Assembly: GCA_964523105.1 (NCBI GenBank)
Contig: CAZFZN010000031.1
Coordinates: 17,683-81,682 of the forward strand
Length of the DNA stretch: 64,000 nt
Direction of reading: 5' to 3'
From: an uncultured Akkermansia sp.
GTDB taxonomy: Bacteria; Verrucomicrobiota; Verrucomicrobiia; Verrucomicrobiales; V1-33
Shown in pieces: positions 2,564 to 59,854 of the stretch. The position numbers and the translations under genes are program-made. Position 1 is the stretch's first letter; each line of letters opens with the position of its first letter. Under the pieces are notes generated by a model. That model was not told the DNA's origin, searched no databases, and saw only the letters and a list, made by a program, of their open reading frames with translations.

Positions 2564-3952
<1,389 letters not shown>

Positions 3953-15999: not shown

Positions 16000-18525
16000 A
16001 TGAACTCCCGCCTCCTCCTCAGCCTTGTTCCCCTGGCAGGTATGCTGCTTGCCGGCTGCGACAAACCCCAGCCCCGGGCCACGGCTCCCGCGAGTCCTCC
16101 CCCGGCTGAAGCACCAGCCCCGCCGCCGGCCGCACCCGCTGAACCGGATCAGCGGCTCGCGGATCAAATCAACGACATGCAGGACCGTCAGGCGGAACTG
16201 CAGCGCCAGATCGATGAGGAAAAACTCGCGCGCCTGGAAGCCGAGATCGCCCGGGAGCGCGACCTGCTGGAAAAGGACCGCGAAGCATGGCGGATGGAGC
16301 AGGAACTGGCGGATGCCAAAGCAGCCGCCGAAGCCGCCAGGGCGGACGCTGCGGCCGCAGCCCCGGCTCAAACGGGCGGCGACGCGGTGCAGCCGGTGTC
16401 TGCTGCGACGGGCAACTACGACTATCAAACCTTCTACGACGATCTCGCCCCCTACGGCGCATGGTATGATTCGCCGGAATACGGCTACGTCTGGCAGCCG
16501 TCGGTTTATGTGGGCGACACCTCATGGCGGCCCTACACGGTCGGATCGTGGGCTTACTGCGACGCGGGCTGGACGTGGTGCTCGGACGAGCCGTTCGGCT
16601 GGGCCACCTATCACTACGGACGCTGGGCGCGCTGCCGCAACCGCGGCTGGATTTGGGTGCCCGGGGATGTCTGGGCTCCCGCATGGGTGAGCTGGCGGCG
16701 CAGCGACAGCCATGTCGGCTGGTGCCCGCTGCCGCCGGAAACGGTTTATCACCGCAATGTCTCGTGGGGGGCCACCGTGGACACCGACTGGGGGATCGCT
16801 TCCTCCATGTACATCTTCATGCCGGTGCGGCATTTCGACCGGCCCGTGCTGCGCTACTGCGAACCCGCAGCGGTCAGCTTCCAGATCTGCGCCAACACGG
16901 TCAACATCACCAACATCTACTGGCAAAGCGGCCGGGTCCACTGCGGCGGTCCGAAGTACGACTGGATTCGCGGCCACGTGCAGCGCCCTGTGCCGCAATA
17001 CACGCTCGCATGGGACGAGAGCCGCCCCGGGCACGGTCGTCCGGCACACCGCATGGAGAAGAACCGGCTGCACGTCTTCGCCCCCAAAATGGATGTCCCG
17101 TGGAACCGCAGCCTGCAGCCGCGCTCCAAAACCGCGCTGCTCGGCGAAACGGAATTCGTCCGCGCGGAAGGCGGCCTCCCGCAAAAATCCCGGGAACAGT
17201 TCCGCAGGGAAAAAGCCAGCCGCCAGCAGGCGGTGGAGTCCGACAAATCGGCTCGCCTTGTCATGGAGCGCCAGCAGCGCCTCCGCGACATGGAGAAGTC
17301 CCGCGCCACGCTGGCGGCCGAGGCTCAGAAGTCGGCGGAGACGGCCGTCACCGCCCCCGCCGGCCCGGCCCGTCCTGACAAATTTCCCGGAAAGTCCGGC
17401 CGGGTGCCCGCCGGCCCGCAGCCGCAAAAGGAGGGCGACGCTGCCAAACTTCAGCCCGTGACTCCCCCTCAGCCGGAAATTGCGGTTTCCGAACCCCGTT
17501 CCGGTGGAAAGACCTCCGCCCCTTCCACACGCCTTGAGGAATTGCGGCGGCAGAAGGGAGCGGAGCCGGCCGTTGCGCCGCAGGCTCCCGCAGCAGACGC
17601 CGTTGCATCCGAAAATCAGCGCCTCGCGGCTGAAGCCGCCACGCGTGAGGCCGCCGCCCGGGCCGATGCCAAGACCGCCGGCGACCGCACCCGCATGGAA
17701 TCTCTGCGCCGCGAGCGTGACGAAGTCGCAAAGCAGGCCGCAGCGCAGCGCGCCGCCGTCATGGAAGAGCAGCAGAAGCGCGCCGCTGAAACCGCCGCCC
17801 GCAATGCAGCCGCAACGCGCGAACTGGAAAATCAAAAAGCACAGCGCGCGCAGCTCGAAGAGCAGCGCCGCCGCACCGATGCCGCCAAAGCGCAGGCGGA
17901 TGCCCGGGGCGCCACTGCCAACGAAAAGGCGCGCCGCGACAGTGAAGCGGCGACGAGGGAGCGCACGAAAGCCGCGATGGAGGATCGGCGCCGTCAGGTG
18001 GAGGAAACCCGCGCCGCCCAGTCCCGCGCCGAAGCCCAGCGCGCCGAACTCGAAAATCAGCGCCGTCAAACCGAAGCCGCCCGCGCCGCAGACCAGGCAA
18101 ACCGTCAGCGCGAAGCGATCGAACAGCAGCGCCGCGCCGCTCAGGCCGAGGCCGCACGCGAAATGCAGCGCCGCGCCGCGGAGGAAAATGCCGCCCGCCA
18201 GCGAGAGGCCATGGAACAGCAGCGCCGCGCCGCCCAGGCCGATGCCGCCCGCGAAATGCAGCGCCGCGCCGCGGAGGAAAATGCCGCCCGCCAGCGCGAG
18301 GCCATGGAACAGCAGCGCCGCGCCGCCCAGGCTGACGCCGCCCGCGAACAGCAGCGCCGCGCCGCGGAGGAAAATGCCGCCCGCCAGCGCGCCGCGATGG
18401 AGCAGCAGCAGCAGCAAGCCGCCCGGGAAAGCGCCCAGCGCGAAGCCATGGACAAAGCGCGCCGCGCCTCGGAGGAATCCGCGCGCCGTCAGTCCGAAGA
18501 CCGCGGCGGCCGGCGCGGGAAGTAG
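16000..18525 (+). CDS. Lipoprotein with a W/Y-rich central domain (DUF6600-like) and a long R/A/E/Q coiled-coil tail
   Basis: ATG 16000 gives MNSRLLLSLVPLAGMLLAGC (lipobox). The central region reads YGAWYDSPEYGYVWQP..GWATYHYGRWA..GWIWVPG. The tail carries 3 x 93-nt repeats. Confidence 0.75.
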   Translation: MNSRLLLSLVPLAGMLLAGCDKPQPRATAPASPPPAEAPAPPPAAPAEPDQRLADQINDMQDRQAELQRQIDEEKLARLEAEIARERDLLEKDREAWRMEQELADAKAAAEAARADAAAAAPAQTGGDAVQPVSAATGNYDYQTFYDDLAPYGAWYDSPEYGYVWQPSVYVGDTSWRPYTVGSWAYCDAGWTWCSDEPFGWATYHYGRWARCRNRGWIWVPGDVWAPAWVSWRRSDSHVGWCPLPPETVYHRNVSWGATVDTDWGIASSMYIFMPVRHFDRPVLRYCEPAAVSFQICANTVNITNIYWQSGRVHCGGPKYDWIRGHVQRPVPQYTLAWDESRPGHGRPAHRMEKNRLHVFAPKMDVPWNRSLQPRSKTALLGETEFVRAEGGLPQKSREQFRREKASRQQAVESDKSARLVMERQQRLRDMEKSRATLAAEAQKSAETAVTAPAGPARPDKFPGKSGRVPAGPQPQKEGDAAKLQPVTPPQPEIAVSEPRSGGKTSAPSTRLEELRRQKGAEPAVAPQAPAADAVASENQRLAAEAATREAAARADAKTAGDRTRMESLRRERDEVAKQAAAQRAAVMEEQQKRAAETAARNAAATRELENQKAQRAQLEEQRRRTDAAKAQADARGATANEKARRDSEAATRERTKAAMEDRRRQVEETRAAQSRAEAQRAELENQRRQTEAARAADQANRQREAIEQQRRAAQAEAAREMQRRAAEENAARQREAMEQQRRAAQADAAREMQRRAAEENAARQREAMEQQRRAAQADAAREQQRRAAEENAARQRAAMEQQQQQAARESAQREAMDKARRASEESARRQSEDRGGRRGK
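18121..18399. repeat. Tandem 93-nt (31-codon) repeat x3 inside the lipoprotein CDS
   Basis: Units at 18121..18213, 18214..18306 and 18307..18399 encode EQQRRAAQA(E/D)AARE(M/Q)QRRAAEENAARQR(E/A)AM. Only a few substitutions separate the copies. Confidence 0.9.
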
Positions 18526-37793: not shown

Positions 37794-37840
37794 GACACCG
37801 GCAGCGTAGCGCACCGGGCTCGATGAAAAGAAGAAAACCG

Positions 37841-37960
37841 CGGATGGACACGGATGGACGCCGCTGCAAGGCACCGCCTTCCCCATCCCTCCCGCCCCGC
37901 CGCTTCCTCCTTTCCTCTCAGACAAAAGTATCCGTGTTCATCCGTGTCCATCCGTGGTTC
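37841..37960. repeat. Inverted arrays of 10-nt tandem units flanking a pyrimidine-rich 70-nt spacer
   Basis: 37841 cggatggaca-cggatggacg 37860 faces 37931 tccgtgttca-tccgtgtcca-tccgtggttc 37960. The element lies in a divergent promoter region. Confidence 0.7.
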
Positions 37961-45448: not shown

Positions 45449-47374
45449 ATGAAACCCGTCCGCTTTTGGCCCCTGGCCACCGTCATTATCCTGCCCGTGC
45501 TCGTGCTGGCGGCGGCTTCGGTTTATGGGCTCATCCAACGCGGGAAGGCCACGCGGGTCGAAGCCGCCGCGCAGTGCCGGATCGAGTATGTGGATTCCCT
45601 CTGGGGCAATGTTTGGGGTGAGGCTGTGGAGGCGTCGCCGCGGGTGGTGCTTTACGATGACCCGCCGCGGCCCCGCGAGAAGGTGCCGTTCCCAGGCGGG
45701 CTCTTGGACCTGGATGACGGCCCCTTTCCCACGCCGGAACAGCAGCGGGAAGGCGAGTCGCGGCTGGACAAGGCCGTGACGGAAAAAGACCTCGCCGCCC
45801 TGCGCAGCCTCATGGAGGAAAAGGATCACGCTCCATGGTTCACCGCGTCCGGCATTCCCATCCCGGCGCTCGCCGCATGGCACTGGATCCAGACCAGGCT
45901 GGACGCGCCGGCCTCCATTCCCCCCGCGGATGTCGCGCTGGCAGTGCGCGTGCTGACGGTGGAGGCACCCTCGGTGCTCACCACGACGCTGCTGGATAAG
46001 TTGTCAGCGCATTTTCCCGACGCGGTCGCCGAGGGACGCCGCGTCTGGCAACTCATGGAAGTGCGGCGCGCCGCCTTTCGCCGCACCTCGCCGCTGCGAT
46101 ACCGGCGGGGCAACGGCGCCTACGGCCCTCCCCAGGTCGTGCCCCTGCCTCACAATTCCCTGGAAGTGACCGGCCTGCCGGTGGACGAAGTGAAAAACCG
46201 CTGGCCGGGCCTGATCTGGACGGGCCGGCAGCGGCCGCTAACGTTTGCCCTCGTGATGCCCGGCCATCGTGGCGAGGAACGCGTGCTGCTGGAGGCGGAA
46301 CTGCACGCCGCTGCGCGCACCCTGGCCGAAAAGTCCGTGCCCCTGCTGCCGCCCTGGGCGACCGCCGGTGTGACGCTGAAGCCGGAGAGTTTCATCCGCT
46401 CCGGCATTCGCCTGCCGGAAATCCCGCTGGGCACGGAAGTCGGCCAGCCCCTGACAACGCGCGAGAGCAGCCTCTGGACGGTAACCGCCGGCGCGAAGGA
46501 GAGAGGCGCGATTTTTAAAGACTACGAGCGCCTCGTGCTGTGGGCCGCTGCCTTCATCCTCACCAGTCTGCTCACCGCCCTGCTCGGCCTGCGTTACATC
46601 CGCCGAACGCTGCACAAGGAGCGCCGCCTGGGAGAGATGAAGAGCCAGTTTGTCAGCAGCGTGAGTCATGAACTGCGCGCCCCCATTGGCTCCCTGCGCC
46701 TCATGGCCGAGGGACTGGCCAGCGGCAAAGTGTCAGGCAAAGCCGCGGACGAATTCCACCGCCTCATGGCCGGCGAAGGCGCGCGCCTTTCCTCACTCAT
46801 CGAAAACGTGCTCGACTTCGCCCGCATCGAACAGGGCCGGAAGCAGTATCACCTGGCCGAAACCGACGTGGCCGCGCTGGTGCAGGACGCCGTGAAGCTC
46901 ATGCAGCCGCAGGCTGAGGCGCGCGGATTGAAGATCACCTGCGAGTGCGCGCCACTGCCTTTCATTCCGAAAGTGGACGCCGGCGCCGTGCAGCAGGCGC
47001 TGATCAATCTGCTCGATAACGCCATAAAATTCTCGCCGGCCAACGTAGCTCGACATTCCAATGTCGAGTCGGGCGCGGACTCGACATTGGAATGTCGAGC
47101 TACAATCCACGTCCGCCTCGCTCCTGACGCCCCGGGGTGGTCCCTCTCAGTAACCGATCAGGGCGGGGGCATCCCGGAAGAGGAACACGCCCGCATCTTC
47201 GAGCGCTTCTACCGCCTGGGAAATGAACTGCGCCGCGAAACCACCGGCACCGGCATCGGTTTGGCCATTGTGAAGCACATCGTCGAAGGCCACGGCGGTC
47301 GCGTGAGGGTGCAGTCTGAAATGGGGAAAGGCAGTGAGTTCAGAATGGAGTTCACACAAAAGGCTGAAGGCTAA
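45449..47374 (+). CDS. Sensor histidine kinase (two TM helices, ~340-aa periplasmic domain, HisKA + HATPase_c)
   Basis: H-box SHELRAPI, N-box LLDNAIKFSP, G-boxes DQGGGI and GTGIGLAIV. Confidence 0.9.
   Translation: MKPVRFWPLATVIILPVLVLAAASVYGLIQRGKATRVEAAAQCRIEYVDSLWGNVWGEAVEASPRVVLYDDPPRPREKVPFPGGLLDLDDGPFPTPEQQREGESRLDKAVTEKDLAALRSLMEEKDHAPWFTASGIPIPALAAWHWIQTRLDAPASIPPADVALAVRVLTVEAPSVLTTTLLDKLSAHFPDAVAEGRRVWQLMEVRRAAFRRTSPLRYRRGNGAYGPPQVVPLPHNSLEVTGLPVDEVKNRWPGLIWTGRQRPLTFALVMPGHRGEERVLLEAELHAAARTLAEKSVPLLPPWATAGVTLKPESFIRSGIRLPEIPLGTEVGQPLTTRESSLWTVTAGAKERGAIFKDYERLVLWAAAFILTSLLTALLGLRYIRRTLHKERRLGEMKSQFVSSVSHELRAPIGSLRLMAEGLASGKVSGKAADEFHRLMAGEGARLSSLIENVLDFARIEQGRKQYHLAETDVAALVQDAVKLMQPQAEARGLKITCECAPLPFIPKVDAGAVQQALINLLDNAIKFSPANVARHSNVESGADSTLECRATIHVRLAPDAPGWSLSVTDQGGGIPEEEHARIFERFYRLGNELRRETTGTGIGLAIVKHIVEGHGGRVRVQSEMGKGSEFRMEFTQKAEG
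47045..47103. repeat. Perfect 59-nt doublet of GTAGC-headed hairpins embedded in frame in the kinase CDS
   Basis: 47045 GTAGCTCGACATTCCAATGTCGAGTC, then gggcgcg, then GACTCGACATTGGAATGTCGAGCTAC 47103. The 26-nt arms are exact reverse complements. Confidence 0.9.
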
Positions 47375-47445
47375 AGGCTGAGGTATGAAACCTCCGATGC
47401 GCGCTCCTTTCAGCCTTCAGCCTTCATACTTCATACTTCATACTT
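47360..47445. repeat. Inverted heptamer arrays (AAGGCTG)x3 / (CAGCCTT)x2-3 followed by (TTCATAC)x3
   Basis: 47360 aaggctgaaggctaaaggctgagg, then a 22-nt loop, then 47406 cctttcagccttcagcctt, then ttcatac x3 ending 6 nt before the response-regulator ATG. Confidence 0.7.
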
Positions 47446-47449
47446 TCCC

Positions 47450-48136
47450 ATGCGCCTCCTCATCATCGAAGACGAACTGCCCATGCGCACCGCGCTCTGC
47501 GAGACTCTCACCGCCGAGGGTTACAAAGTGCGCAGCGCCGCCGACGGCGAGGCCGGCCTCCAGCGCGCCCTCACTGAAGAGCACGATCTCATTCTCCTCG
47601 ACGTGATGATGCCGAAGCTGGACGGCTACGCCCTTTGCCAGGAACTCCGCCGCCGCGGCCGGAAGACGCCCGTGCTCATGCTCACCGCCAAAGGCCAGGT
47701 GGACGACCGCGTGAGCGGCCTCGACGCCGGCGCCGACGATTACCTGGTGAAGCCCTTCTCCATGCGCGAACTCCTCGCCCGCGTGCGCGCCCTGCTCCGC
47801 CGCGCCGAACGCGCAGACGCCGCCCCTCCGTTGCTGACGCTGGGCGACACCGTGGTGGATTTCGTGAAACAGACCGCCCGGCGCGGCAGTCAGGCGATCG
47901 AGCTTTCCCAAAAGGAATTCGCCATGCTCCGCCTCATGGCCAGCCGGCCCGGCGAGGTCATCAGCCGAGAGACCTTCCTGGATGAAGTCTGGGAATACAA
48001 CGCCTGGCCGACGACGCGCACCGTGGACAATTTCATTGCCGCCCTGCGCGCGAGAATCGAGCCCGACCCCGAGCGCCCGCGCTACATCGAGACCGTGCGC
48101 GGCACCGGTTACCGGCTCGCGCCGGGGAAGCCATGA
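47450..48136 (+). CDS. OmpR-family response regulator
   Basis: Receiver domain (LLDVMMPKLDG, LTAK) plus a winged-helix output domain (VRGTGYRL). Confidence 0.93.
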   Translation: MRLLIIEDELPMRTALCETLTAEGYKVRSAADGEAGLQRALTEEHDLILLDVMMPKLDGYALCQELRRRGRKTPVLMLTAKGQVDDRVSGLDAGADDYLVKPFSMRELLARVRALLRRAERADAAPPLLTLGDTVVDFVKQTARRGSQAIELSQKEFAMLRLMASRPGEVISRETFLDEVWEYNAWPTTRTVDNFIAALRARIEPDPERPRYIETVRGTGYRLAPGKP

Positions 48137-51121: not shown

Positions 51122-52138
51122 ATGTCAGACACACTCTCCTCTCCCCTGCCCGCCGACGACGTGGCAGCCATTGATCAGCTTCGCTCCTCCTACAGTAAGC
51201 TCACCGCAGAACTCGGCAAGGTCATCGTCGGCCAGCAGGCGGTTATCGAGCAGCTCTGTATCTGTCTCTTCGCCCGCGGCCACGCCCTGCTCATGGGAGT
51301 TCCCGGTCTGGCCAAGACGCTGCTCATTTCCAAGCTGGCGGAAACGATGTCGCTGCAGTTCAGCCGCATTCAGTTTACGCCGGACCTGATGCCGATGGAC
51401 ATCACCGGCACGGACATTCTCCAGGAACTACCGGGCGGGAAAAGGCAGTTCGAATTCGCCAAAGGCCCCGTCTTTGCGAACATCGTCCTCGCCGATGAAA
51501 TCAACCGCGCCCCCGCCAAGACGCAGGCTGCGATGCTCGAGGCGATGCAGGAACATCGCGTCACCGTCGCCGGCCGCACCTACACCCTGGACTCGCCGTT
51601 CTTCGTGCTGGCGACGCAAAACCCCATCGAACAGGAGGGCACCTATCCGCTGCCGGAAGCGCAGCTCGACCGCTTCATGTTCATGATCGGCGTGGACTAT
51701 CCGAGCCGCGATGAGGAAATCGCCATCGCCAAGAGCACGACCGGCGTGAGCATGCCGAAGCTGGAGCACGTGCTCGACGGAGAACGCGTGCTGGCTTGTC
51801 AGGATCTCGTGCGCCGGGTGCCGGTGCCGGATCACATTTACAGCTTCGCCGTGGACCTCGTGCGCAAGACACGCCCCGCCGGAGCTGAGGCGCCGGAATG
51901 GCTCAAGCCGCTCGTCGGCTGGGGCGCCGGCCCGCGCGCCGTGCAGTATCTCGTGCTCGGCGCCAAAGCCCGCGCCGCGCTGCTCGGCAGTTACATGGTG
52001 CGCATGGAGGATATCGTCGCCGTGGCCGAGCCCGTGCTGCGGCACCGCGTGATGACGACGTTCACCGCGCAGAGCGAAGGCGTGGACAGCATCGCGGTGG
52101 CGAAGCGCCTCGTCGAAGAATTGCGTAAAGAGGGATAA
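51122..52138 (+). CDS. MoxR-family AAA+ ATPase
   Basis: ATG 51122. Walker A GVPGLAKT, Walker B LADEINRA, and VLATQNPIEQEGTYPLPEAQLDRF. Confidence 0.92.
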   Translation: MSDTLSSPLPADDVAAIDQLRSSYSKLTAELGKVIVGQQAVIEQLCICLFARGHALLMGVPGLAKTLLISKLAETMSLQFSRIQFTPDLMPMDITGTDILQELPGGKRQFEFAKGPVFANIVLADEINRAPAKTQAAMLEAMQEHRVTVAGRTYTLDSPFFVLATQNPIEQEGTYPLPEAQLDRFMFMIGVDYPSRDEEIAIAKSTTGVSMPKLEHVLDGERVLACQDLVRRVPVPDHIYSFAVDLVRKTRPAGAEAPEWLKPLVGWGAGPRAVQYLVLGAKARAALLGSYMVRMEDIVAVAEPVLRHRVMTTFTAQSEGVDSIAVAKRLVEELRKEG

Positions 52139-52168
52139 GCGACTAACCCGCCTCAAAGCGATCCCCAT

Positions 52169-52278
52169 CGTCCTCGTTCTCGTCCTCGTTCTCGTCCTCG
52201 TACTCGTCCTCGTTCTCGTCCTCGTTCTCGTCCTCGTACTCGTCCTCGTTCTCGTCCTCGTTCTCGTTCTCGCCCTCG
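52169..52278. repeat. Hexamer array (CGTCCT/CGTTCT/CGTACT), about 18 units with a 36-nt higher-order period
   Basis: Begins 30 nt after the moxR stop and ends 46 nt before the four-helix-bundle gene ATG. Confidence 0.9.
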
Positions 52279-52324
52279 AAACCCGACTGCACGGAACGCC
52301 CCCAATACCTCGCCTCGCCACGAC

Positions 52325-52726
52325 ATGCCCTCTCCTCGATATCAATTCGATCACGAGAAACTGGACGTGTACCAGTGCGCGCTCCAATTCATCACCCGGG
52401 TCACGGCTTTGTTCGCAGAACTCCGCTCATCAAGAATTCCCCAGCTTAAGGAAGTCTGTGACCAACTGGACCGAGCTTCCATTTCCGTCGTCCTCAATAT
52501 CGCAGAAGGAAACGGCAGACGTGCCGGTCAGGCGCGCGCCAGGTTCTTCGACGACTCCCGGGGTTCGACGACCGAATGTGCAGGGTGCCTTGATGTTCTG
52601 GTGGCGAAGGGAGCGTGCGCGGCTAAGCGTATTCAGGAGAGCAAGGAACTCCTTCTGCGCATGGTGGCAATGCTAACCAAACTTGTGGAGCGATTCGATG
52701 GAAGCACGAGAAAGGAGGAGCGATGA
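52325..52726 (+). CDS. Four-helix-bundle protein (23S rRNA intervening-sequence protein family)
   Basis: LDVYQCALQF, QLDRASISVVLNIAEGNGR and FFDDSRGSTTEC match the family pattern L.vyq.A, Ql.RA..Si..NIAEG.gr, F...a.GS..E. Visibly less GC-rich than its neighbours. Confidence 0.85.
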   Translation: MPSPRYQFDHEKLDVYQCALQFITRVTALFAELRSSRIPQLKEVCDQLDRASISVVLNIAEGNGRRAGQARARFFDDSRGSTTECAGCLDVLVAKGACAAKRIQESKELLLRMVAMLTKLVERFDGSTRKEER

Positions 52727-52777
52727 ACGGCAGCGACCAGCGTGAATCCCGGGGGCTTGGACCGCTGTTTGCGTTTT

Positions 52778-52805
52778 CGAGGACGAGCACGAGGACGAGG
52801 ACGAC
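52778..52805. repeat. Short inverted copy of the hexamer array (GAGGAC/GAGCAC)
   Basis: cgaggacgagcacgaggacgaggacgac is complementary to the left array over about 26 nt, with one mismatch and one G-U. Confidence 0.8.
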
Positions 52806-52838
52806 TATGTTCCCGCGTGAACCCCTGACCCAACGCGC

Positions 52839-53747
52839 ATGAAAACCGCCGCCACATTCCTGGACAGCAAAGTCCTTTCCCGCCTGCTCGCGCTGCCGCT
52901 CAATGCGCGCCAGGCGATGATTGGCGGCGTCTCCGGCCGGCACCGCAGTCCCATCCGCGGGTCGTCCATCGAGTTCTCGCAGTATCGCAAGTACGTTCCC
53001 GGCGACGACACGCGCCGGCTCGACTGGCGGACGTGGGGGCGCACGGACAGGTTCTACATCAAGGAATTCGAAGCCGACACCAACCTGCGGCTGGCACTCA
53101 TCGTGGACGCCAGCGGCAGCATGGGTTTCCAGCCTGCGGGTGCGAACGAAACACGGCTCGACTTCTGCCGTAAACTCGCAGGCACGCTCGGCTATCTGGC
53201 CGCGCAGCAGGGCGATGCCGTGGGCCTGTGGGGCGTGGGCAAGGACCACCGCCAGAAACTCCCGGCCAAACGCGGCGCCTCACATTTCAAACTCATCCTC
53301 GATCAGTTGTCCTCGCTGGAGGCGAAAGGCGGCACCACGATTCTGGAATCCATGCACGAAGCCGCCGAGCAAATCGCGCAGCGCGCGCTGGTGGTCATCG
53401 CGTCGGACTTCTTCGTCGAACCCGCGACGCTGAAACACGCGCTCCAGCACCTGCGCTTCCGCAAGCACGACGTGGTGCTGTTCCATGTGCTCGATCAGGT
53501 GGAGCTGGACTTCACCTTCGACCGCCCGGCGCGTTTTGTGGACATGGAGGGCGGCGAGACGCTGCTGGCGGATCCTTCGCTCATCGCGCGGCGTTATCGC
53601 GAAGTCGTGAAGAAGTTCATGGCCGAGTTCGACGATGTCATCCGCACCACCGGCGTGGATTATCACCGCGTGCTGATGAAGGAGAATTACGAAGACGTGC
53701 TCGCCAAATTCCTCCTCGCCCGCCTGCAAAGCAAAGGCCGCCGCTGA
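52839..53747 (+). CDS. DUF58 protein (vWA-like MoxR partner)
   Basis: GSSIEFSQYRKYVPGDDTRRLDW and LIVDASGSM are DUF58 hallmarks. Confidence 0.9.
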   Translation: MKTAATFLDSKVLSRLLALPLNARQAMIGGVSGRHRSPIRGSSIEFSQYRKYVPGDDTRRLDWRTWGRTDRFYIKEFEADTNLRLALIVDASGSMGFQPAGANETRLDFCRKLAGTLGYLAAQQGDAVGLWGVGKDHRQKLPAKRGASHFKLILDQLSSLEAKGGTTILESMHEAAEQIAQRALVVIASDFFVEPATLKHALQHLRFRKHDVVLFHVLDQVELDFTFDRPARFVDMEGGETLLADPSLIARRYREVVKKFMAEFDDVIRTTGVDYHRVLMKENYEDVLAKFLLARLQSKGRR

Positions 53748-53795
53748 GGGCCAATTACCGTTTTGAAAACCGGACCCGCCATCTATTTTGCAGCC

Positions 53796-54299
53796 ATGAC
53801 AACTCCGACTCTCACCTGGGAAGCGATCTGCGCCGACCGCTCGCTGCGGGACTTGCCGTACAAGATCGAGACCAACCGCTTCAACCAAATCATCATGAGT
53901 CCTGCATCAGGCTGGCACGGCCATTGCGAATATGAAGTCGGCAAACTGCTGGAGCAACGGCTGCCGGGCGGAAAAATCATTCAGGAGTGTCCGGTGCAGA
54001 CTGTGGATGGAATCCGCGTAGCGGATGTCGCCTGGATGTCGCTGCAACGCTGGCAGCCGCTGCGCAGATCGGTGGCATTTCCCGTGGCGCCCGAGGTCTG
54101 CGTGGAAATCCTGTCGCCCTCCAACTCCCGCGAAGAAATGCTGGAGAAAATGCAGCTCTACTTCGCCAAGGGTGCTCAGGAGGTCTGGCTTTGCGATGAA
54201 GACGGGAAGTTTGAGTTCTTCTCCGCCGTCAGTGCGCCCCATGCCCTGCCTCATTCTCAACTGTGCCCTGACTTTCCGCAGAGCATCAAGCTGGATTAA
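53796..54299 (+). CDS. Uma2-family endonuclease-like protein
   Basis: ATG 53796. VADVAW, PEVCVEILSPSNSREEMLEKMQLYFAKGAQEVWLCD fits the Uma2 PD-(D/E)xK core. Less GC-rich than its neighbours. Confidence 0.8.
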   Translation: MTTPTLTWEAICADRSLRDLPYKIETNRFNQIIMSPASGWHGHCEYEVGKLLEQRLPGGKIIQECPVQTVDGIRVADVAWMSLQRWQPLRRSVAFPVAPEVCVEILSPSNSREEMLEKMQLYFAKGAQEVWLCDEDGKFEFFSAVSAPHALPHSQLCPDFPQSIKLD

Positions 54300-54320: not shown

Positions 54321-56381
54321 ATGAGCTTTCTCGCCCCCATACTCCTGTTCGGTCTGCCGCTCGCGCTGCTGCCGGTGATCATTCACCTCATTCACCTGCT
54401 GCGGCGGCGGCAGGTGAAGTGGGCGGCGATGATGTGGCTGATGCTGGCGCAGCGGATGCACAAGGGGCTCTCGAAGCTGCGGCAGTATTTGATCCTGCTC
54501 TTCCGCGTGCTCGCCATTGCGGCGATTATTTTTGTTATCGGCCGTCCGCTCGCGGGCGGATTGCTGGGGCTCACCGGCGGCGCGCCGGACAGTGTGATCA
54601 TTCTGCTCGACCGCAGCGCCTCGATGGAGCAGCAGCTGCTGACCACCGGTGTGAGCAAGCGCGAGGCGGGTCTGCAGAATCTCTCCGCCGCCATCAAGGA
54701 CGCTTACGGCAAGCGCTCCAGGCTCGTGCTCATCGACAGCGCCACGCTCCAGCCCGTGGCCCTGGAGAAAGCGGAATCGCTGCCCGATGTGCCCCAGGCC
54801 GGCCCCACGGACACGGCGGCGGACATTCCCGCGATGCTGCAGGCGGCGCTCGATTACATCACGACAAACCAAACGGGCCGCACCGATGTGTGGCTGGTGA
54901 GCGACCTGCGGCAGTCCGACTGGAATGCCGCGGGCGGGCGCTGGGCCGGGCTGCGCGGGGCATTCGCATCGCTCCAGGGCGTGCGGTTCCAGGTGCTCGC
55001 CTATCCGGAGGACCAGCCGTCGAATCTCGGCGTGACGGTGGAAAACGTCACGCGCCGGGAGTCGGCGGACAAAGCGGAATTGCTCATGGACATCCGGCTG
55101 CAGCGCGAAGCGCCCGCCGCGGAGGCGTTCCATGTACCGCTGCGCGTGGTGGTGAACGGCGTGAGCAGCGAGTTGAAGGCGAATTTCAAGGGCACGCAGG
55201 TCGTGCTCCAGGCGCAGTCCATTCCCGTCGACAAATCGACGAAGCGCGGCTGGGGCCGCGTGGAGTTGCCGGCCGACACCAATCCGGAGGACAACGTCTT
55301 CAATTTCGTCTTCGATGAGCCGCCGGCGCTGAAATCGGTGATCGTGACGGACAAAGGCGAAGTGTCAGGCCCGCTGCTGGCGGCGCTCAGTGCGCCGGCG
55401 GATCCTTCGCGCAAATACGAAGCCTCCGCGCTGCCCGCGGCCCGCGCCGCCGAGATCCCGTGGGAACAGACGGCGCTCATCCTTTGGCAGACGCCGCTTC
55501 CTGACAAGGAATCCGCTGTGGCCAAACAACTCGAAGCGCATGTCGCCGCCGGACGCTCGCTGATCTTTCTGCCGCCGGATACGCCGGATGACCGCGAGTT
55601 CGCCGGCGTGCGCTGGACGCAGTGGCAGACGGCGCCGTCGGGCAAACAGGTGCTCGCCGAATGGTGGCGCAACGACACCGGCCTGCTCACCGCCACACGC
55701 GCCGGCTCCGCCCTGCCCGTGGGTGAAGTGGAGGTGCAGCGCTGGTGCGGCATCCAGGGCGAGCACTCGCCATTCGCCCGCCTGAGTGAGGATGCCGGAA
55801 AAGCCCCCCTGCTGGTGCAATCCGCGCGCGATGCGGGACACGGCGCATTTTTCCTGACCACACTTCCCGGCCCCGGCAGCAGCAGCCTGGCGCGCGACGG
55901 AGTCGTGCTCTTTGCCATGCTCCACCGCGCGCTCAATGCCGCCGCCGCCTCGCTCGGCAATGCCCGGCAGCGCCTCGCCGCCGCCGGCGCCGTGGATGCG
56001 CCTGACAACTGGGCGCGCCTGGACCTCGAGAACCCGGAAAGCGTGCTCCCGCTCGACCGCCCGCTGCGCGCCGGAGTGCTGCAGCGTCCCGGAGCCTCCA
56101 GCGACAAGCCGGACCTGCTGACCGCTCTCAACCGCCCGCCCGGTGAAGATGCCCCGCAGGTGCTCGGCAAAGCCGCGCTGGATGAACTCTTCGCCGGCCT
56201 CGACTGGCGGCTGCTGGAGCGCACGCTGGAAAACGAGAAGAGTCTTGTCAGCGAAGTCTGGCGCACGTTCCTCTGGTGCATGGCTGCGGCCATCGTCATG
56301 GAAGCCCTGCTCTGCATGCCGGGACGCCGCACGGCCGCCGCCCGCAAAGCGGAGGTGAGCCGGGACGCAGTTCCCGCCTGA
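54321..56381 (+). CDS. BatA-N-terminal-domain (double-TM) membrane protein with a vWA-like region
   Basis: N-terminus MSFLAPILLFGLPLALLPVIIHLIHLLRRRQVKW, then VIILLDRSASM, and a C-terminal TM helix. Confidence 0.8.
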   Translation: MSFLAPILLFGLPLALLPVIIHLIHLLRRRQVKWAAMMWLMLAQRMHKGLSKLRQYLILLFRVLAIAAIIFVIGRPLAGGLLGLTGGAPDSVIILLDRSASMEQQLLTTGVSKREAGLQNLSAAIKDAYGKRSRLVLIDSATLQPVALEKAESLPDVPQAGPTDTAADIPAMLQAALDYITTNQTGRTDVWLVSDLRQSDWNAAGGRWAGLRGAFASLQGVRFQVLAYPEDQPSNLGVTVENVTRRESADKAELLMDIRLQREAPAAEAFHVPLRVVVNGVSSELKANFKGTQVVLQAQSIPVDKSTKRGWGRVELPADTNPEDNVFNFVFDEPPALKSVIVTDKGEVSGPLLAALSAPADPSRKYEASALPAARAAEIPWEQTALILWQTPLPDKESAVAKQLEAHVAAGRSLIFLPPDTPDDREFAGVRWTQWQTAPSGKQVLAEWWRNDTGLLTATRAGSALPVGEVEVQRWCGIQGEHSPFARLSEDAGKAPLLVQSARDAGHGAFFLTTLPGPGSSSLARDGVVLFAMLHRALNAAAASLGNARQRLAAAGAVDAPDNWARLDLENPESVLPLDRPLRAGVLQRPGASSDKPDLLTALNRPPGEDAPQVLGKAALDELFAGLDWRLLERTLENEKSLVSEVWRTFLWCMAAAIVMEALLCMPGRRTAAARKAEVSRDAVPA

Positions 56382-56484: not shown

Positions 56485-56670
56485 CATGGCCCGGACGGGC
56501 CATCAGATTCAGCCCACGGCAGCTTCGCTGCCGTGGGATAGCTTTCTGTGAACTCCCGCGCCCCGGAGCGGGCGCCAGAGACTTCTCCGGATGCCCTCTC
56601 GCGCCCGCTCCGGGGCGCAGGATATGACACCAACGCCCCCACGGCAGCCGGGCTGCCGTGGGCTGAATCT
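56485..56670. repeat. Composite nested palindrome (three hairpin-unit types)
   Basis: ATGGCCC-gga-CGGGCCAT. Outer pair: agattCAGC-CCACGGCAGC-ttc-GCTGCCGTGG (56505..56537) and CCACGGCAGC-cgg-GCTGCCGTGG-GCTGaatct (56638..56670). Inner pair: GCGCCCCGGAGCGGGCGC (56558..56575) and GCGCCCGCTCCGGGGCGC (56601..56618). Confidence 0.75.
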
Positions 56671-56764
56671 CCTGACCCTCCGGGCCAGTCGCCAAACCCT
56701 GCGCATTCTACTCACGAACTGTCTGTGAAACTGTTCGCCCGGACCCGGCTTGACCGGGTTTGGA

Positions 56765-56834: not shown

Positions 56835-59123
56835 TCAGTCGCGGCGTTCGCGGCGCGGGCCGCGCGGGCCACGGTCGCGGGGACCACGGTCCCGGCGTTC
56901 GCCGCGGTCATCGCGGGGCGGGCGGCCTTCGCCGTCGCCGCCGCCTTCGCTGGGACTGTCGCCGGAAAGGCTTTCGACAAGTTCGCCCGGGGTTTGGCCG
57001 CCGGCGAGTTCGCGCTCGCGGTCTTTGAGTACGGCTTTGCGGCTCATCTTGACGCGGCCCTTGTCGTCCACTCCCACGCACTTGGCGGTCACGATGTCAC
57101 CGGTTTTGACGACGTCTTCGGTCTTGTTGACGCGGAAGTCGGCGAGTTCGCTGATGTGGATGAGTCCGTCGCGGCCGGGGAAGATTTCCATGAACGCTCC
57201 GAAGTTCGTCGTGCTGACGACGCGGCCCGTGTAGAGCGCGCCCACTTCGGCTTCGGCGAACATGTTCTTGATCATCTTCAGCGCGATGTCGAGGCTCTCC
57301 TTCTTCACCGCGTAAATGTGGACGGTGCCGTCGTCCTCGATGTCGATCTTCGCGCCGGATTCGGCCTGGATGCCTTTGATGTTTTTGCCGCCGGGGCCGA
57401 TGAGTTCGCCGATGCGGTCCGGCGGGATCTTCGTGCTTTCGATGCGCGGGGCATAAGGGCTGAGCTCCGTGCGCGGGCCGCTGATGGCGGCGTTCATGGT
57501 CTCCAAAATCTGGAGACGGCCGGCTTTGGCTTTGTGGATGGCTTCCTCCAGAATGCTGAGCGGAATGCCGGGGAGCTTGAGATCGAGCTGATAGCCGGTG
57601 ACCCCGTTGGTGGTGCCGCAAAGCTTGAAGTCCATGTCGCCGAAGTGGTCTTCGCTGCCGAGGATATCGATCATCGTCAGGTAGCGCTTCATTTTCTCGG
57701 ACTCATCGAACTCACTGACCAGACCGACGCTGATGCCGGCGACGGGAGCGGTGAGCGGCACGCCGGCGGCGAGCAGCGCCATGACGCCGGCGCAGGTGCT
57801 GGCCATGCTGGTGGAGCCGTTGGACTCCATGACTTCGCTGCTGACGCGGACGGCATAGGGAAAATCCTTCTCCGTCGGCATGACGGGGAAGATGGATTTC
57901 TCCGCCAGAGCCCCGTGGCCTATCTCCCGGCGATTCTGCCCGCCGAAGCGTCCTGTTTCTCCGACCGAGAAGGGCGGGAAGTTGTAGTGCAGGAGGAAGC
58001 GCTTGCTGTCCTCACCGCCGGTGTAGTTGTCGAATTCCTGGGCTTCATCCAGAGGAGCGAGTGTAACGAGGGCCATCGCCTGGGTTTCGCCGCGGGCGAA
58101 CAAAGCGGAGCCGTGCACGCGCGGGAGAACATCCACTTCCGCGGTGAGCGGGCGGATTTCGTCGAGGCCGCGGCCGTCGCAGCGGTGCTTCTTGTCGAGG
58201 ATGCTGATGCGGAAGGCTTTCTTCTGGAGGTAGTCGAAGGCCTGACTGATCTCGAACGCACCGGCGTCGGGATACTTCGCAAGGATGGCGGCTTTCACTT
58301 CCTCCTTGAGTTCGCCGATGGCTTTGGCGCGGGCGGTTTTGCCGGGCGTGTAGATGGCGGCCTCAATGCGGCTGCCGGCGACTTCGTAGGCGACTTCCAG
58401 CAGTTCCTGGCGGGCGCTGAGAATCTTGTACTCGCGCACGGGTTTGCCGCACTTCTCGCGGAGTTCCTTTTGGGCGGCGATGAGCGGCTGCACGGCGGCG
58501 TGGCCGAAGTGGAGGGCCTTGATGAATTCTTCGTCCGGCACTTCAAAGGCGTCGCCTTCGATCATGATGACTTCGTCCTCGCTGCCCACGTAGATGAGAT
58601 CGAGGTCGCTGTCCTGACGCTGCGTGTGCGTCGGGTTGGCGACGAATTCTCCATTGATGCGGCCCACGCGCACGGCGCCGAAGGGCTTGGCCATCGGCAG
58701 ATCGGAGAGATACACCGCGGCGCTGGCGCCGTTCATGGCGAGCACATCGGAGTCATTCTCCCCGTCCGCGGCCAGGAGCAGCGCGACGATCTGGGTGTCG
58801 TAGAAATAACCTTTCGGGAAGAGCGGCCGCAGCGGACGGTCCGTCATGCGGCAGGTGAGGATTTCCTTTTCCGTCGGGCGGCCTTCGCGTTTGAAATAAC
58901 CGCCGGGGAAACGGCCCGCGGCGCTGGCTTTCTCTTTATACTCGACGCTCAGGGGGAAGAAATCCTGACCGTCTTTGAGATTGGTGGACGAAACGGCGGT
59001 GACGAGGACGACGGTTTCGCCGAGGGTCACAGTGACCGCGCCGTCTGCGAGACGCGCGATCTTTCCGGTTTCAATGATGATGTTGCTCGAGCCGACCTGG
59101 CTCGTGGTTTTGTGGATGCTCAT
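56835..59123 (-). CDS. pnp: Polyribonucleotide nucleotidyltransferase (PNPase) with an R/D/G-rich C-terminal tail
   Basis: 762 aa. Two RNase PH domains, a KH domain (GPGGKNIKGIQ) and an S1 domain (GRVVSTTNFGAFMEI), then a ~60-aa tail ending in RPPRDDRGERRDRGPRDRGPRGPRRERRD. Confidence 0.95.
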   Translation of the reverse strand: MSIHKTTSQVGSSNIIIETGKIARLADGAVTVTLGETVVLVTAVSSTNLKDGQDFFPLSVEYKEKASAAGRFPGGYFKREGRPTEKEILTCRMTDRPLRPLFPKGYFYDTQIVALLLAADGENDSDVLAMNGASAAVYLSDLPMAKPFGAVRVGRINGEFVANPTHTQRQDSDLDLIYVGSEDEVIMIEGDAFEVPDEEFIKALHFGHAAVQPLIAAQKELREKCGKPVREYKILSARQELLEVAYEVAGSRIEAAIYTPGKTARAKAIGELKEEVKAAILAKYPDAGAFEISQAFDYLQKKAFRISILDKKHRCDGRGLDEIRPLTAEVDVLPRVHGSALFARGETQAMALVTLAPLDEAQEFDNYTGGEDSKRFLLHYNFPPFSVGETGRFGGQNRREIGHGALAEKSIFPVMPTEKDFPYAVRVSSEVMESNGSTSMASTCAGVMALLAAGVPLTAPVAGISVGLVSEFDESEKMKRYLTMIDILGSEDHFGDMDFKLCGTTNGVTGYQLDLKLPGIPLSILEEAIHKAKAGRLQILETMNAAISGPRTELSPYAPRIESTKIPPDRIGELIGPGGKNIKGIQAESGAKIDIEDDGTVHIYAVKKESLDIALKMIKNMFAEAEVGALYTGRVVSTTNFGAFMEIFPGRDGLIHISELADFRVNKTEDVVKTGDIVTAKCVGVDDKGRVKMSRKAVLKDRERELAGGQTPGELVESLSGDSPSEGGGDGEGRPPRDDRGERRDRGPRDRGPRGPRRERRD

Positions 59124-59178
59124 GTGTTGCTTTCTTTGTTTTGTGTTTTGGAAAGCGGGCAGCCGGACTTCGGATGAA

Positions 59179-59244
59179 GTGTTCAGTTTTCAGATTTCAG
59201 TTTTCAGATGCACGACCTGAAGACTGAAACCTGAACACTGAAAC
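59179..59244 (-). promoter_or_regulatory. Long imperfect hairpin in the pnp 5' leader built from inverted heptamer arrays
   Basis: The minus strand reads (GUUUCAG UGUUCAG GUUUCAG UCUUCAG) gucgugcau (CUGAAAA CUGAAAU CUGAAAA CUGAACA). It lies 56-121 nt upstream of the pnp ATG and downstream of the rpsO terminator. Confidence 0.5.
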
Positions 59245-59265
59245 CTCCGGCGGCCCGCCGGGATA

Positions 59266-59301
59266 ACGCAAAACCCCGCCACGGCTACAACCGGGCGGGG
59301 T
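59266..59301 (-). terminator. Intrinsic terminator of rpsO
   Basis: The minus strand reads CCCCGCCCGG-uuguag-CCGUGGCGGGG followed by UUUUGCGUU, about 36 nt after the rpsO stop. Confidence 0.7.
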
Positions 59302-59336: not shown

Positions 59337-59594
59337 TTAGCGGCGGAGACCGAGGCCCTTCACGACCTTCTGGTAGCGTTCGGGGGCGGTGTTTTTGAGA
59401 TAATCGAGGAGCCGGCGGCGCAGGGCCACGAGCTTCAGGAGACCGCGGCGGGACGAGAAGTCCTTCTTATGCCCGCCGAGGTGCTGGGTAAGATGATTGA
59501 TGCGCGCCGAGAGGCACGCGACCTGATAATCAGCACTGCCGGTGTCGTTGGGGTGCTGTTTGTACGCGTTCGGATCGATGGTATTTTGAGTCAT
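59337..59594 (-). CDS. rpsO: 30S ribosomal protein S15
   Basis: ATG 59594 gives [58 protein letters not shown]. Confidence 0.93.
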
Positions 59595-59854
59595 ATTCCT
59601 TGTGGGTTGTTCAGCAGCCGGCGTCATCTGACGCGCCGCTCCTTATCCTTCCCTTGGGATAAGTGCCGCGAGCCGTGCCACACATCGGGGGATGCGCAAC
59701 TGGGTTTTTCTGGGGGGTGACCATCCTGGTGTCCCGCTCCCCCTCCATCGGTTAACACCCCGTACCGGTGAATTCAGACGTCCTCAATCCATGAAAAGCC
59801 ATTGGACACACTCTGACCAACCCTCCATGATCGCGCCGGTTCCCTTCCCCCTTC

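Follow-up and report, generated by a model that had tools for sequence, protein, structure and literature searches.

Why do 700 nucleotides (nt) separate moxR from the gene for its DUF58 partner, when the two genes are normally adjacent? The question arises in contig CAZFZN010000031.1 of an uncultured Akkermansia sp., from which a stretch of 64 kb was analysed as a whole and is called the window below. We found that the gap holds an open reading frame (ORF) of 133 amino acids (aa) that belongs to the four-helix-bundle family of 23S rRNA intervening-sequence (IVS) proteins, that this ORF is flanked by two mutually complementary arrays of hexamer repeats, and that gene and arrays recur together in relatives, in many different operons. 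We think it somewhat probable that the gap is one copy of a widespread, self-contained and promoterless IVS-type cassette, the arms of which would form a stem in the operon transcript that is cut by RNase III.

Complementary hexamer arrays enclose a gene between moxR and DUF58

The initial annotation had described a left array, a 133-aa gene and a right array in a gap of 700 nt, and all were recovered essentially where it had placed them (Table 1). The ORF shares its strand with moxR and DUF58. Tandem Repeats Finder resolved the left array (52168..52272) into 8.8 copies of a 12-nt period made up of two hexamers, with 94% matches, and the right array (52778..52804) into 4.5 copies of a single hexamer. 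The complementarity of the left arm to the right arm extends past the array, to 52281. The right array is complementary to the left over 27 nt at 93%, in six registers, and a series of inverted-repeat pairs (I1-I22) joins the right arm to the left array. The innermost register (52252-52281 with 52775-52804) covers 30 nt at 90% complementarity and ends in CCTCGAAA on the left and TTTCGAGG on the right. Pairing had been estimated before at about 26 nt with one mismatch and one G-U, close to what we read from the sequence of the 27-nt register, which has two non-Watson-Crick positions, one of them G·U.

Folding calculations also join the two arms. In the minimum-free-energy structure predicted for the whole gap, the right arm is base-paired to the left array, and the duplex between the left and right spacers reaches −94.6 kcal/mol as compared to −60.8±6.1 kcal/mol for shuffled partners, making it about 5.5 standard deviations more stable. 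The left array alone has no self-structure (z = +0.27). At 102 nt, it is the longest left array among the 80 genome loci introduced below (median 24 nt), a one-sided slippage expansion to 105 nt. The same stretch (52168-52272, about 105 nt) is C-rich, G-poor and untranslated; its composition is like that of a Rho-utilisation site, and it might cause polarity downstream.

A scan of the gap for promoter-like or terminator-like sites found none, and a search of Rfam over 51900-53000 gave zero matches. The four-helix-bundle gene is present in a single copy in the window, where hexamer arrays of the TCNTNN/NNANGA type are confined to this gene.

Arms recur around related genes and match their own partners

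A protein search identified 2131 relatives, the closest of which come from Verrucomicrobiaceae and Prosthecobacter-like genomes. Scanning one genome per species yielded 80 loci at 44-66% identity, mainly in Verrucomicrobiota and also in Planctomycetota, Lentisphaerota and a few other phyla. For the arms we scored 82 loci encoding relatives that are 44-82% identical. The score is that of the best complementary segment without gaps that joins the 300 nt before the start codon to the sequence around and after the stop codon; the controls (n = 426) had the same geometry shifted elsewhere within the loci. Complementary arms above the 95th percentile of the controls were found at 77/82 loci (94%). 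The observed scores have a median of 24.3, and the shifted controls have a mean of 11.3 and a maximum of 20.1. The best arms have a median length of 34 nt and lie a median of 463 nt apart. The initial annotation had suggested checking whether paralogues of the gene carry inverted short-tandem-repeat arms as well. Almost all relatives and paralogues do, and the refuting outcome, paralogues without arrays or an array-free copy of the gene at this junction, was not seen.

Period-6 arrays near these genes were detected without a preset motif, and 96/97 of them obey one rule, (TCNTNN)n or the complementary (NNANGA)n. The hexamer is fixed as T, C and T at positions 1, 2 and 4 and varies at positions 3, 5 and 6, so that the unit types across loci include TCGTCC, TCCTAC, TCGTAA, TCTTAA, TCTTGC and others. 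The unit type of the arms follows the protein clade. Arrays typically have 3-5 units (median 27 nt) and their number falls sharply past five units (n = 25 with five, n = 4 with six). A single locus, L028, has heptamer arms in place of hexamers. Cognate arms scored a median of 22.25 against each other and non-cognate arms 11.0 (p = 2e-25): arms fit their own partner over the arms of other loci, which amounts to covariation at the scale of the whole arm. Orthologues of the window's gene at 80-82% identity have kept both arms with differing copy numbers. The outer arm ends of the cassettes are ragged from such copy-number variation, and the inner ends are conserved.

The cassette resembles ORF-bearing intervening sequences of 23S rRNA

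IVSs that carry an ORF interrupt the 23S rRNA of Leptospira, Coxiella burnetii, Brucella and Xanthomonas at helix 9, 25 or 45 (PMC4990558). In the Coxiella IVS, RNase III cuts a 28-bp terminal stem in its middle, and the loop contains an S23p ORF in sense orientation; the GC content is under that of the genome, and tandem heptamers whose number differs among strains lie at the 5′ end. Its S23p is decaying and apparently untranslated (PMC4990558). The parallel with ribosomal IVSs drawn in the initial annotation is therefore closer than was stated there, since stem, sense S23p ORF, low GC and short tandem repeats are all shared. The cassette likewise joins a PF05635/S23p protein, encoded by a sense ORF in the predicted loop, to a terminal complementary stem of about 28-30 bp, with short tandem repeats of variable number in the 5′ arm (heptamers in Coxiella, hexamers in the cassette). 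It has no promoter of its own and is part of a host transcription unit, its GC is under that of the host, and it is distributed sporadically, having been exchanged horizontally and then maintained vertically. The two differ in four respects. The cassette sits between protein-coding genes of mRNA operons rather than in 23S rRNA, its arms are regular hexamer arrays obeying TCNTNN, its protein is under strong purifying selection whereas the Coxiella S23p decays, and the RNase III cut, demonstrated for the Coxiella IVS, is a prediction for the cassette.

By this analogy, the cassette would be transcribed by read-through from the host operon. Its arms would then pair in the transcript over about 27-34 bp and leave the ORF in a loop of about 460 nt, which is the topology of an ORF-bearing 23S rRNA IVS. 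RNase III would cut the stem. The cassette mRNA would thus become an RNA of its own with paired ends, and the flanking cistrons would be split apart; we propose that the insertion is tolerated inside an operon because of this separation. The simplest explanation of the invariant T-C-N-T would be a sequence-specific binder with a six-base register, possibly the pentameric cassette protein itself. We infer the RNA steps, that is, transcription by read-through, pairing and RNase III cleavage, from the parallel with rRNA IVSs, from a stem length adequate for RNase III and from an analogous array hairpin between rpsO and pnp that is described below. Our survey of the literature, which was incomplete and reached few subscription journals, found no description of PF05635 genes with inverted hexamer arms or as operon cassettes, and the cassette is apparently an undescribed, operon-dwelling relative of the ribosomal intervening sequences.

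Several observations weigh against an RNase III-cut stem as the whole account. If selection acted on the stem in sense RNA only, G·U would be expected to be the better tolerated mismatch. Under symmetric scoring the arms have 33 G·U as compared to 37 A·C mismatches, an equal frequency that gives no signature for pairing of sense RNA over a DNA-level inverted repeat. RNase III requires just double-stranded RNA; T-C-N-T is fixed though the enzyme does not need it, so pairing alone is an incomplete explanation. The order of the arms is reversed, with the purine-rich arm upstream, in 10/77 loci, of which 7 are still co-oriented with both neighbours, and a reversed order is not producible by recombination between the arms. 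At the present locus the fold of the whole 700 nt is a modest gain over shuffles (z = −2.1), and the left array, 105 nt long, can pair over just 27-30 nt at once. Finally, the 80 genome loci represent the subfamily that matches best (44% identity or more), and about 20 of them are orthologues of one junction, so that the 94% of loci with arms is neither a figure for all PF05635 genes nor a count of independent events.

Cassettes sit between partner genes of unrelated operons

In 67/80 loci the gene is co-oriented with its upstream neighbour, and the neighbours are usually tens of nt away, as judged from crude gene calls. Pfam searches of the flanking ORFs placed the cassette between E2 and E3 of a 2-oxoacid dehydrogenase (L006, L038), between an HlyD-type adaptor and AcrB (L060), between an ABC ATPase and its ABC-2 permease (L081), between OEP and a multicopper oxidase (L021) and between further pairs elsewhere. 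The 20 ORFs that flank the cassette in 10 other loci have metabolic or transport functions. In Pleurocapsa, a 23S_rRNA_IVP gene located between cmr3 and cmr2 was taken at the time as a Cas-associated function (PMC3936711), and the family is also among listed CRISPR-linked domains (PMC10910872); this association with cas operons may be hitch-hiking, not function. For annotation in these phyla, operon partners that lie about 0.5-0.7 kb apart may just carry a cassette.

Hairpins of the same hexamers without an ORF were found in L048, L063, L054 and L072. In L048, a metagenome-assembled genome from Lentisphaerota, about 8 such hairpins with loops of 25-60 nt stand in tandem around the cassette (1837-1925, 2268-2480 and 2935-3400). 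One of them lies within or at the end of an HsdM-like open frame and may be tolerated in-frame. In L033 a cassette with reversed arms (2501-2866) lies between a distant MoxR (43% identical) and a distant DUF58 (32% identical), suggesting that the corresponding junction of a paralogous or distant MoxR operon was occupied independently.

The moxR-DUF58 junction has been occupied, emptied and exchanged

We surveyed the junction in 80 metagenomic loci related through DUF58, in which the MoxR orthologues are 77-92% identical. The cassette lies between moxR and DUF58 in 25 loci and upstream of DUF58, with moxR out of view, in 2 more. In 38 loci moxR and DUF58 are adjacent at a gap of 4-92 nt, in line with the statement in the initial annotation that the two are normally neighbours; 7 loci have something else in the gap and in 8 the upstream end falls outside the locus. 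Of the 80 genome loci, 15 also represent this junction. Empty sites, for which it had suggested looking in relatives, thus exist, and so do decayed remnants: in L104 and L107 these consist of the left arm, roughly 17 codons from the start of the gene and a short piece of the right arm, and L116 retains a lone right-type array. The junction is also a hot spot for other small insertions. These are a CGTCCTCGTC trace beside a low-GC segment (L087, about 1792-2195), two small ORFs that look by eye like an antitoxin and a RelE/ParE-like toxin (L122/L123, about 1574-2192) and an unrelated ORF of about 190 aa that by eye is lipoprotein-like (L144, about 1493-2201).

In a tree of MoxR and DUF58, occupied loci fall in several ingroup clades, and empty loci form the outgroup and are also nested in occupied clades. 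Orthologous cassettes hold the junction in lineages whose DUF58 proteins are about 70% identical, and the cassette here is therefore an old resident rather than a recent insertion. Between the sister lineages L102/L106 and L101 the whole cassette including both arms is present in the former and absent from the latter, the break running from about 10 nt past the moxR stop to just before the DUF58 start. No target-site duplication was found at the boundary of L102 with L101, a single comparison and hence a weak one.

Two pairs of closely related hosts carry dissimilar cassettes. In L095/L110 the identity is 97.9% for MoxR, 98.3% for DUF58 and 62.9% for the cassette, and in L013/L096 it is 98.5%, 98.6% and 64.6%; the cassettes of other equally close hosts are 90-100% identical. 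In the swapped pairs the arms differ along with the ORF (TCGTCC-type vs TCCTCC/TCTTCC-type) and the divergence begins at the moxR stop and continues to about 40 nt within DUF58. Nonsynonymous divergence (dN) of their cassettes is 0.30-0.32 at a synonymous divergence (dS) of 0.27-0.64 in the flanks, as compared to a cassette dN of 0.05-0.17 for a flank dS of 0.3-2.3 in vertically related pairs. Relative to flank dS, cassette dN is several-fold higher than in the vertical pairs, indicating that whole cassettes were exchanged, probably by homologous recombination through the flanks. Arms and ORF are inherited, lost and exchanged as one unit. In a weak neighbour-joining tree the window clade (W, L001-L004; 80-82% identical) stands apart from the main junction group. 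Since neighbour-joining trees on a 130-aa protein are weak, we relied on pairwise identity and on dN/dS contrasts, not on topology.

The long tenure of the gene at this junction could be taken to mean that it encodes an accessory subunit of the MoxR-DUF58-BatA system and that the repeats are ordinary intergenic microsatellites. Its retention across DUF58 proteins of about 70% identity (25 + 2 metagenomic loci and 15 genomic loci), the purifying selection on it and the four-helix-bundle gene enclosed by the distant MoxR/DUF58 pair of L033 would agree with such a role, which is nevertheless very improbable. moxR and DUF58 are directly adjacent in 38 related loci, the junction can hold a toxin-antitoxin-like pair (L122/L123) or unrelated ORFs (L144, L087) instead, and cassette alleles have been swapped among near-identical hosts. 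Close homologues with the same arms occur in E2/E3, RND, ABC and other operons, the arrays flank 94% of homologues in any context, and GC content at third codon positions (GC3) always lies under that of the neighbours. Context and recurrence led us to reject both the accessory role and chance microsatellites.

Gain, loss and replacement of the unit also bear on whether the arms act as DNA. They could be the terminal inverted repeats, or the hairpin or cruciform recombination sites, of a mobile cassette, with a host or foreign recombinase acting in trans as it would on a miniature inverted-repeat transposable element (MITE) or an integron attC site; ORF-less hairpins would then be empty sites or non-autonomous copies, and RNA pairing would be incidental. 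We regard this as rather unlikely. Several observations would agree with it: the strand-symmetric mismatch spectrum (33 G·U vs 37 A·C), the existence of two arm orders, the ORF-less hairpins of the same hexamers (tandem around the cassette in L048, and in L063, L054 and L072), the presence or absence of the unit with its arms, the replacement of whole cassettes at one site and the spread of related cassettes over many unrelated operons. That IVSs are remnants of transposition is, moreover, a published hypothesis (PMC4990558). However, no transposase or integrase gene was found within ±8 kb or among the 20 flanking ORFs of 10 other loci, no target-site duplication was found at the filled/empty boundary, and viral contigs and plasmids were without copies (six pattern matches and zero relatives in the viral contigs, no tblastn match in the plasmids). 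Replacement reaches about 40 nt into DUF58, as in homologous recombination and unlike site-specific insertion at the arm ends, and the outer arm ends are ragged where the inner ends are conserved. The suggestion in the initial annotation that the cassette is possibly mobile holds as far as whole-cassette replacement, loss and dispersal to many operons are concerned; it does not extend to transposition, for which a transposase, a target-site duplication and viral or plasmid copies were all missing.

Known mobile and repetitive elements share single features with the cassette. It has terminal inverted repeats, as insertion sequences and MITEs do, but in the form of tandem arrays with ragged outer ends, and it has neither a target-site duplication (one filled/empty pair, a weak test) nor a transposase nearby. 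Repetitive extragenic palindromes (REP), bacterial interspersed mosaic elements (BIME) and MITE-like palindromes resemble it as repeated intergenic hairpins with ORF-less tandem copies (L048); genes for REP-associated tyrosine transposases (RAYT), transposases and integrases were absent within ±8 kb and among the 20 flanking ORFs of 10 other loci. Integron cassettes also consist of a promoterless, co-oriented ORF dependent on upstream transcription, but they have a single 3′ attC site in place of arms on both sides of the ORF, and the present cassettes stand singly in ordinary operons rather than in an array, with no integrase nearby.

The conserved protein may bind the arrays

The 133-aa ORF passes the family thresholds of PF05635 (E = 2.1e-18, 66.9 bits, cutoff 33.8) and TIGR02436 (60.8 bits, cutoff 24). 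Its AlphaFold model has a mean predicted local distance difference test score (pLDDT) of 90.4 and helices at residues 10-33, 41-63, 68-94 and 100-132. Foldseek matched the model to 2GSC (XCC0516) with a template modelling (TM) score of 0.70-0.83 and to 2RLD (BT_0352) with 0.73-0.90, and also to Avd, the protein of diversity-generating retroelements (DGRs), in 4DWL and 8UB7; phmmer against the PDB found 2GSC at E = 3.9e-6. By score and by its four-helix-bundle fold the protein belongs to PF05635/TIGR02436.

The lower GC of the gene relative to its neighbours, which the initial annotation had noticed, is borne out by an ORF GC of 0.56 and a GC3 of 0.61, as compared to a GC3 of 0.82 and 0.825 in the neighbours. 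The composition check that it had proposed gave the same result elsewhere, with the GC3 of the cassette below that of both neighbours in 31/31 occupied loci. Among orthologues of the cassette lineage dN/dS is 0.03-0.11, reflecting purifying selection, and the protein is therefore functional. The motifs EGNG and RGS-TE of the protein are invariant.

Many homologues have a C-terminal motif [LIV]RE[DE]xxxY right before the array, which is absent in the window's clade. In L020, L029, L034, L046 and L055 a sense TCNTCN array lies inside the 3′ part of the ORF, where it encodes poly-Ser, about 15 codons 5′ of the right arm, and could give an alternative local hairpin. We considered whether the array exists for the sake of the protein. 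Where ORFs continue through the right array, tails in all three frames occur at the C terminus (SRTRTRT, EDEDEDE, GRGRGR), and a protein-level reason for the array was therefore rejected. PADLOC found nothing for the four-helix-bundle protein. To our knowledge the function of the PF05635 family is known solely through its DGR relative Avd, and we know of no ligand.

The kinship with Avd raises the option that the gene is itself the accessory protein of a DGR, to which we give almost no credence. Avd (4DWL, 8UB7) has a homologous four-helix-bundle fold and five-chain assemblies, including the RNA-bound 8UB7, and family membership is shared. The cassette, in contrast, has no reverse transcriptase within ±8 kb or in the 20 flanking ORFs of 10 other loci, its repeats are inverted hexamer arrays rather than a pair of template and variable repeats, and it occupies unrelated operons. 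A DGR was ruled out on this context, with no reverse transcriptase linked to the gene.

The solved relatives 2GSC, 2RLD and 4DWL are five-chain assemblies, and 8UB7 is an RNA-bound DGR ribonucleoprotein that contains Avd. A homopentameric toroid has been reported for the family (Lin et al. 2006, as cited in PMC4990558). By analogy with these five-chain relatives and with that report, the cassette protein would be pentameric.

A pentameric ring offers another account of the arrays. They may serve mainly as periodic sites to which a ring-shaped protein binds, the pentameric cassette protein being the most likely one, at one hexamer per subunit in the manner of TRAP, which reads spaced triplets. 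Binding would serve autoregulation or a ribonucleoprotein, and the complementarity of the arms would be secondary. We hold this account, which is compatible with an RNase III-cut cassette, to be a possible one, though doubtful. It would explain why T, C and T recur at positions 1, 2 and 4 in 96/97 arrays across phyla and why arrays mostly have 3-5 units and rarely more than 5, and it agrees with the five-chain relatives, with the presence of Avd in an RNA-bound complex, with the strong conservation of the protein (dN/dS 0.03-0.11; EGNG and RGS-TE invariant) and with a unit type that tracks protein clade. But unit type also tracks host GC and phylogeny, hence its correlation with clade is not independent, and ORF-less hairpins as well as hairpins of heptamer and decamer arrays occur without the cassette protein. 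The match of a pentamer to five hexamers is numerology for now, and periodic binding leaves the mutual complementarity of the arms unexplained.

A bolder combination joins periodic binding to the IVS-type cassette. Here the pentameric four-helix-bundle protein would read its own flanking arrays, each subunit taking one UCNU or ANGA unit as in TRAP, and so govern whether the stem forms, its excision by RNase III and possibly how the cassette spreads; the cassettes would be RNA-level operon inserts, the free-living form of elements known so far only as ORF-bearing rRNA IVSs. We put this forward as a speculation that is unlikely to hold in full. If it were true, one ancestral activity, the binding of structured or periodic RNA by a ring, would be common to rRNA IVSs, standalone S23p genes and the Avd proteins of DGRs.

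Questions about where bacterial rRNA intervening sequences come from and what they do, and about the S23p/four-helix-bundle proteins that some of them encode, date back to about 1990. Here the S23p family travels in operons of Verrucomicrobiota, Planctomycetota, Lentisphaerota and some other phyla as a stereotyped package of ORF and complementary hexamer arms. The (UCNUNN)n / (NNANGA)n repeat is a defined candidate ligand for the PF05635 family, and the dozens of natural variants with built-in compensatory changes make the stem hypothesis directly testable.

Host operon and other array hairpins in the window

The genes of the host operon and the parts of the gap are listed in Table 1. Within ±8 kb we identified genes for ankyrin, histidine kinase, response regulator, DUF3472, DUF1501, MoxR, DUF58, Uma2, BatA, PNPase and vWA proteins.

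Table 1. Positions of the cassette and of the operon genes around it in the window
Feature	Position	Strand	Remarks
moxR (AAA_3 MoxR ATPase), upstream host gene	51122..52138	+	Pfam AAA_3, E = 3.5e-63
Left (5′) arm, pyrimidine-rich hexamer array TCGTCC/TCGTTC/TCGTAC	52168..52281	+	Inner boundary CCTCGAAA
Leader, left arm to start codon	52282..52324	+	No sigma-70-like promoter
Four-helix-bundle gene (23S rRNA intervening-sequence protein / S23p / Avd-like family), 133 aa	52325..52726	+	
Right (3′) arm, purine-rich hexamer array CGAGGA x4.5	52775..52807	+	Inner boundary TTTCGAGG
DUF58 (vWA-like MoxR partner), downstream host gene	52839..53747	+	Pfam DUF58, E = 1.2e-43
Uma2-family gene	53763..54299	+	Same operon
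BatA	54321..56381	+	Same operon

The Uma2-family gene (PD-(D/E)XK-like, GC3 0.70) splits DUF58 from BatA and is without flanking arrays; PADLOC matches it weakly to the candidate system PDC-S03. DUF58 and BatA overlap by 4 nt in many relatives and are separated by 200-1500 nt of other small ORFs in others. Inspection of the DUF58-BatA gaps of relatives for array hairpins found these other small ORFs and no arrays.

An inverted heptamer-array hairpin (59178-59246) lies between rpsO (59337..59627, minus strand) and pnp (56835..59123, minus strand). In the minus-strand RNA its UUCAGNN and NNCUGAA units would form a stem of about 31 bp (dG −47.9, z = −6.2), next to a terminator-like hairpin at about 59270-59300. 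Rfam gave only sub-threshold, miRNA-like matches for the array hairpin. The TTCAG/CTGAA array hairpin is kept in relatives whose S15 proteins are 78-91% identical, and Haloferula (69%) has non-array hairpins. At the corresponding site in E. coli and S. coelicolor, the pnp leader forms a stem that is cleaved by RNase III (PMC5029454, PMC10126417). This leader stem is like that of the cassette in being long, near-perfect and part of a polycistronic transcript (PMC5029454, PMC10126417); it differs in having a short loop and a role in regulating the host gene, whereas the stem of the cassette surrounds a whole foreign ORF, about 400 nt long.

Another junction of operon partners, the 75-nt spacer between a histidine kinase (45449..47374) and a response regulator (47450..48136), carries inverted heptamer arrays at 47360-47445, with three copies of AAGGCTG followed by two of TTCAGCC and three of TTCATAC (hairpin dG −32.5, z = −4.6). 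Inverted decamer arrays at 37836-37959 consist of CGGATGGACA in two copies and then ATCCGTGTNC in 2.7 copies, giving a predicted stem of 24-30 bp with a 76-nt C-rich loop (dG −57, z = −7.1). At the moxR-DUF58 junction of L086, which is empty apart from it, there is a mini-hairpin of the ATCCGTCC type similar to that at 37836-37959. At 47045-47103 the histidine-kinase frame contains a perfect inverted repeat of 26 nt with 7 nt between its arms (GTAGCTCGACATTCCAATGTCGAGTC / GACTCGACATTGGAATGTCGAGCTAC). Just 3′ of BatA, nested long inverted repeats with arms of 41 nt and 34 nt, each at 85%, occupy 56497-56678. A GC-rich tandem repeat of 93 nt (18102-18409; 3.3 copies, 92% matches) is probably a coding repeat.

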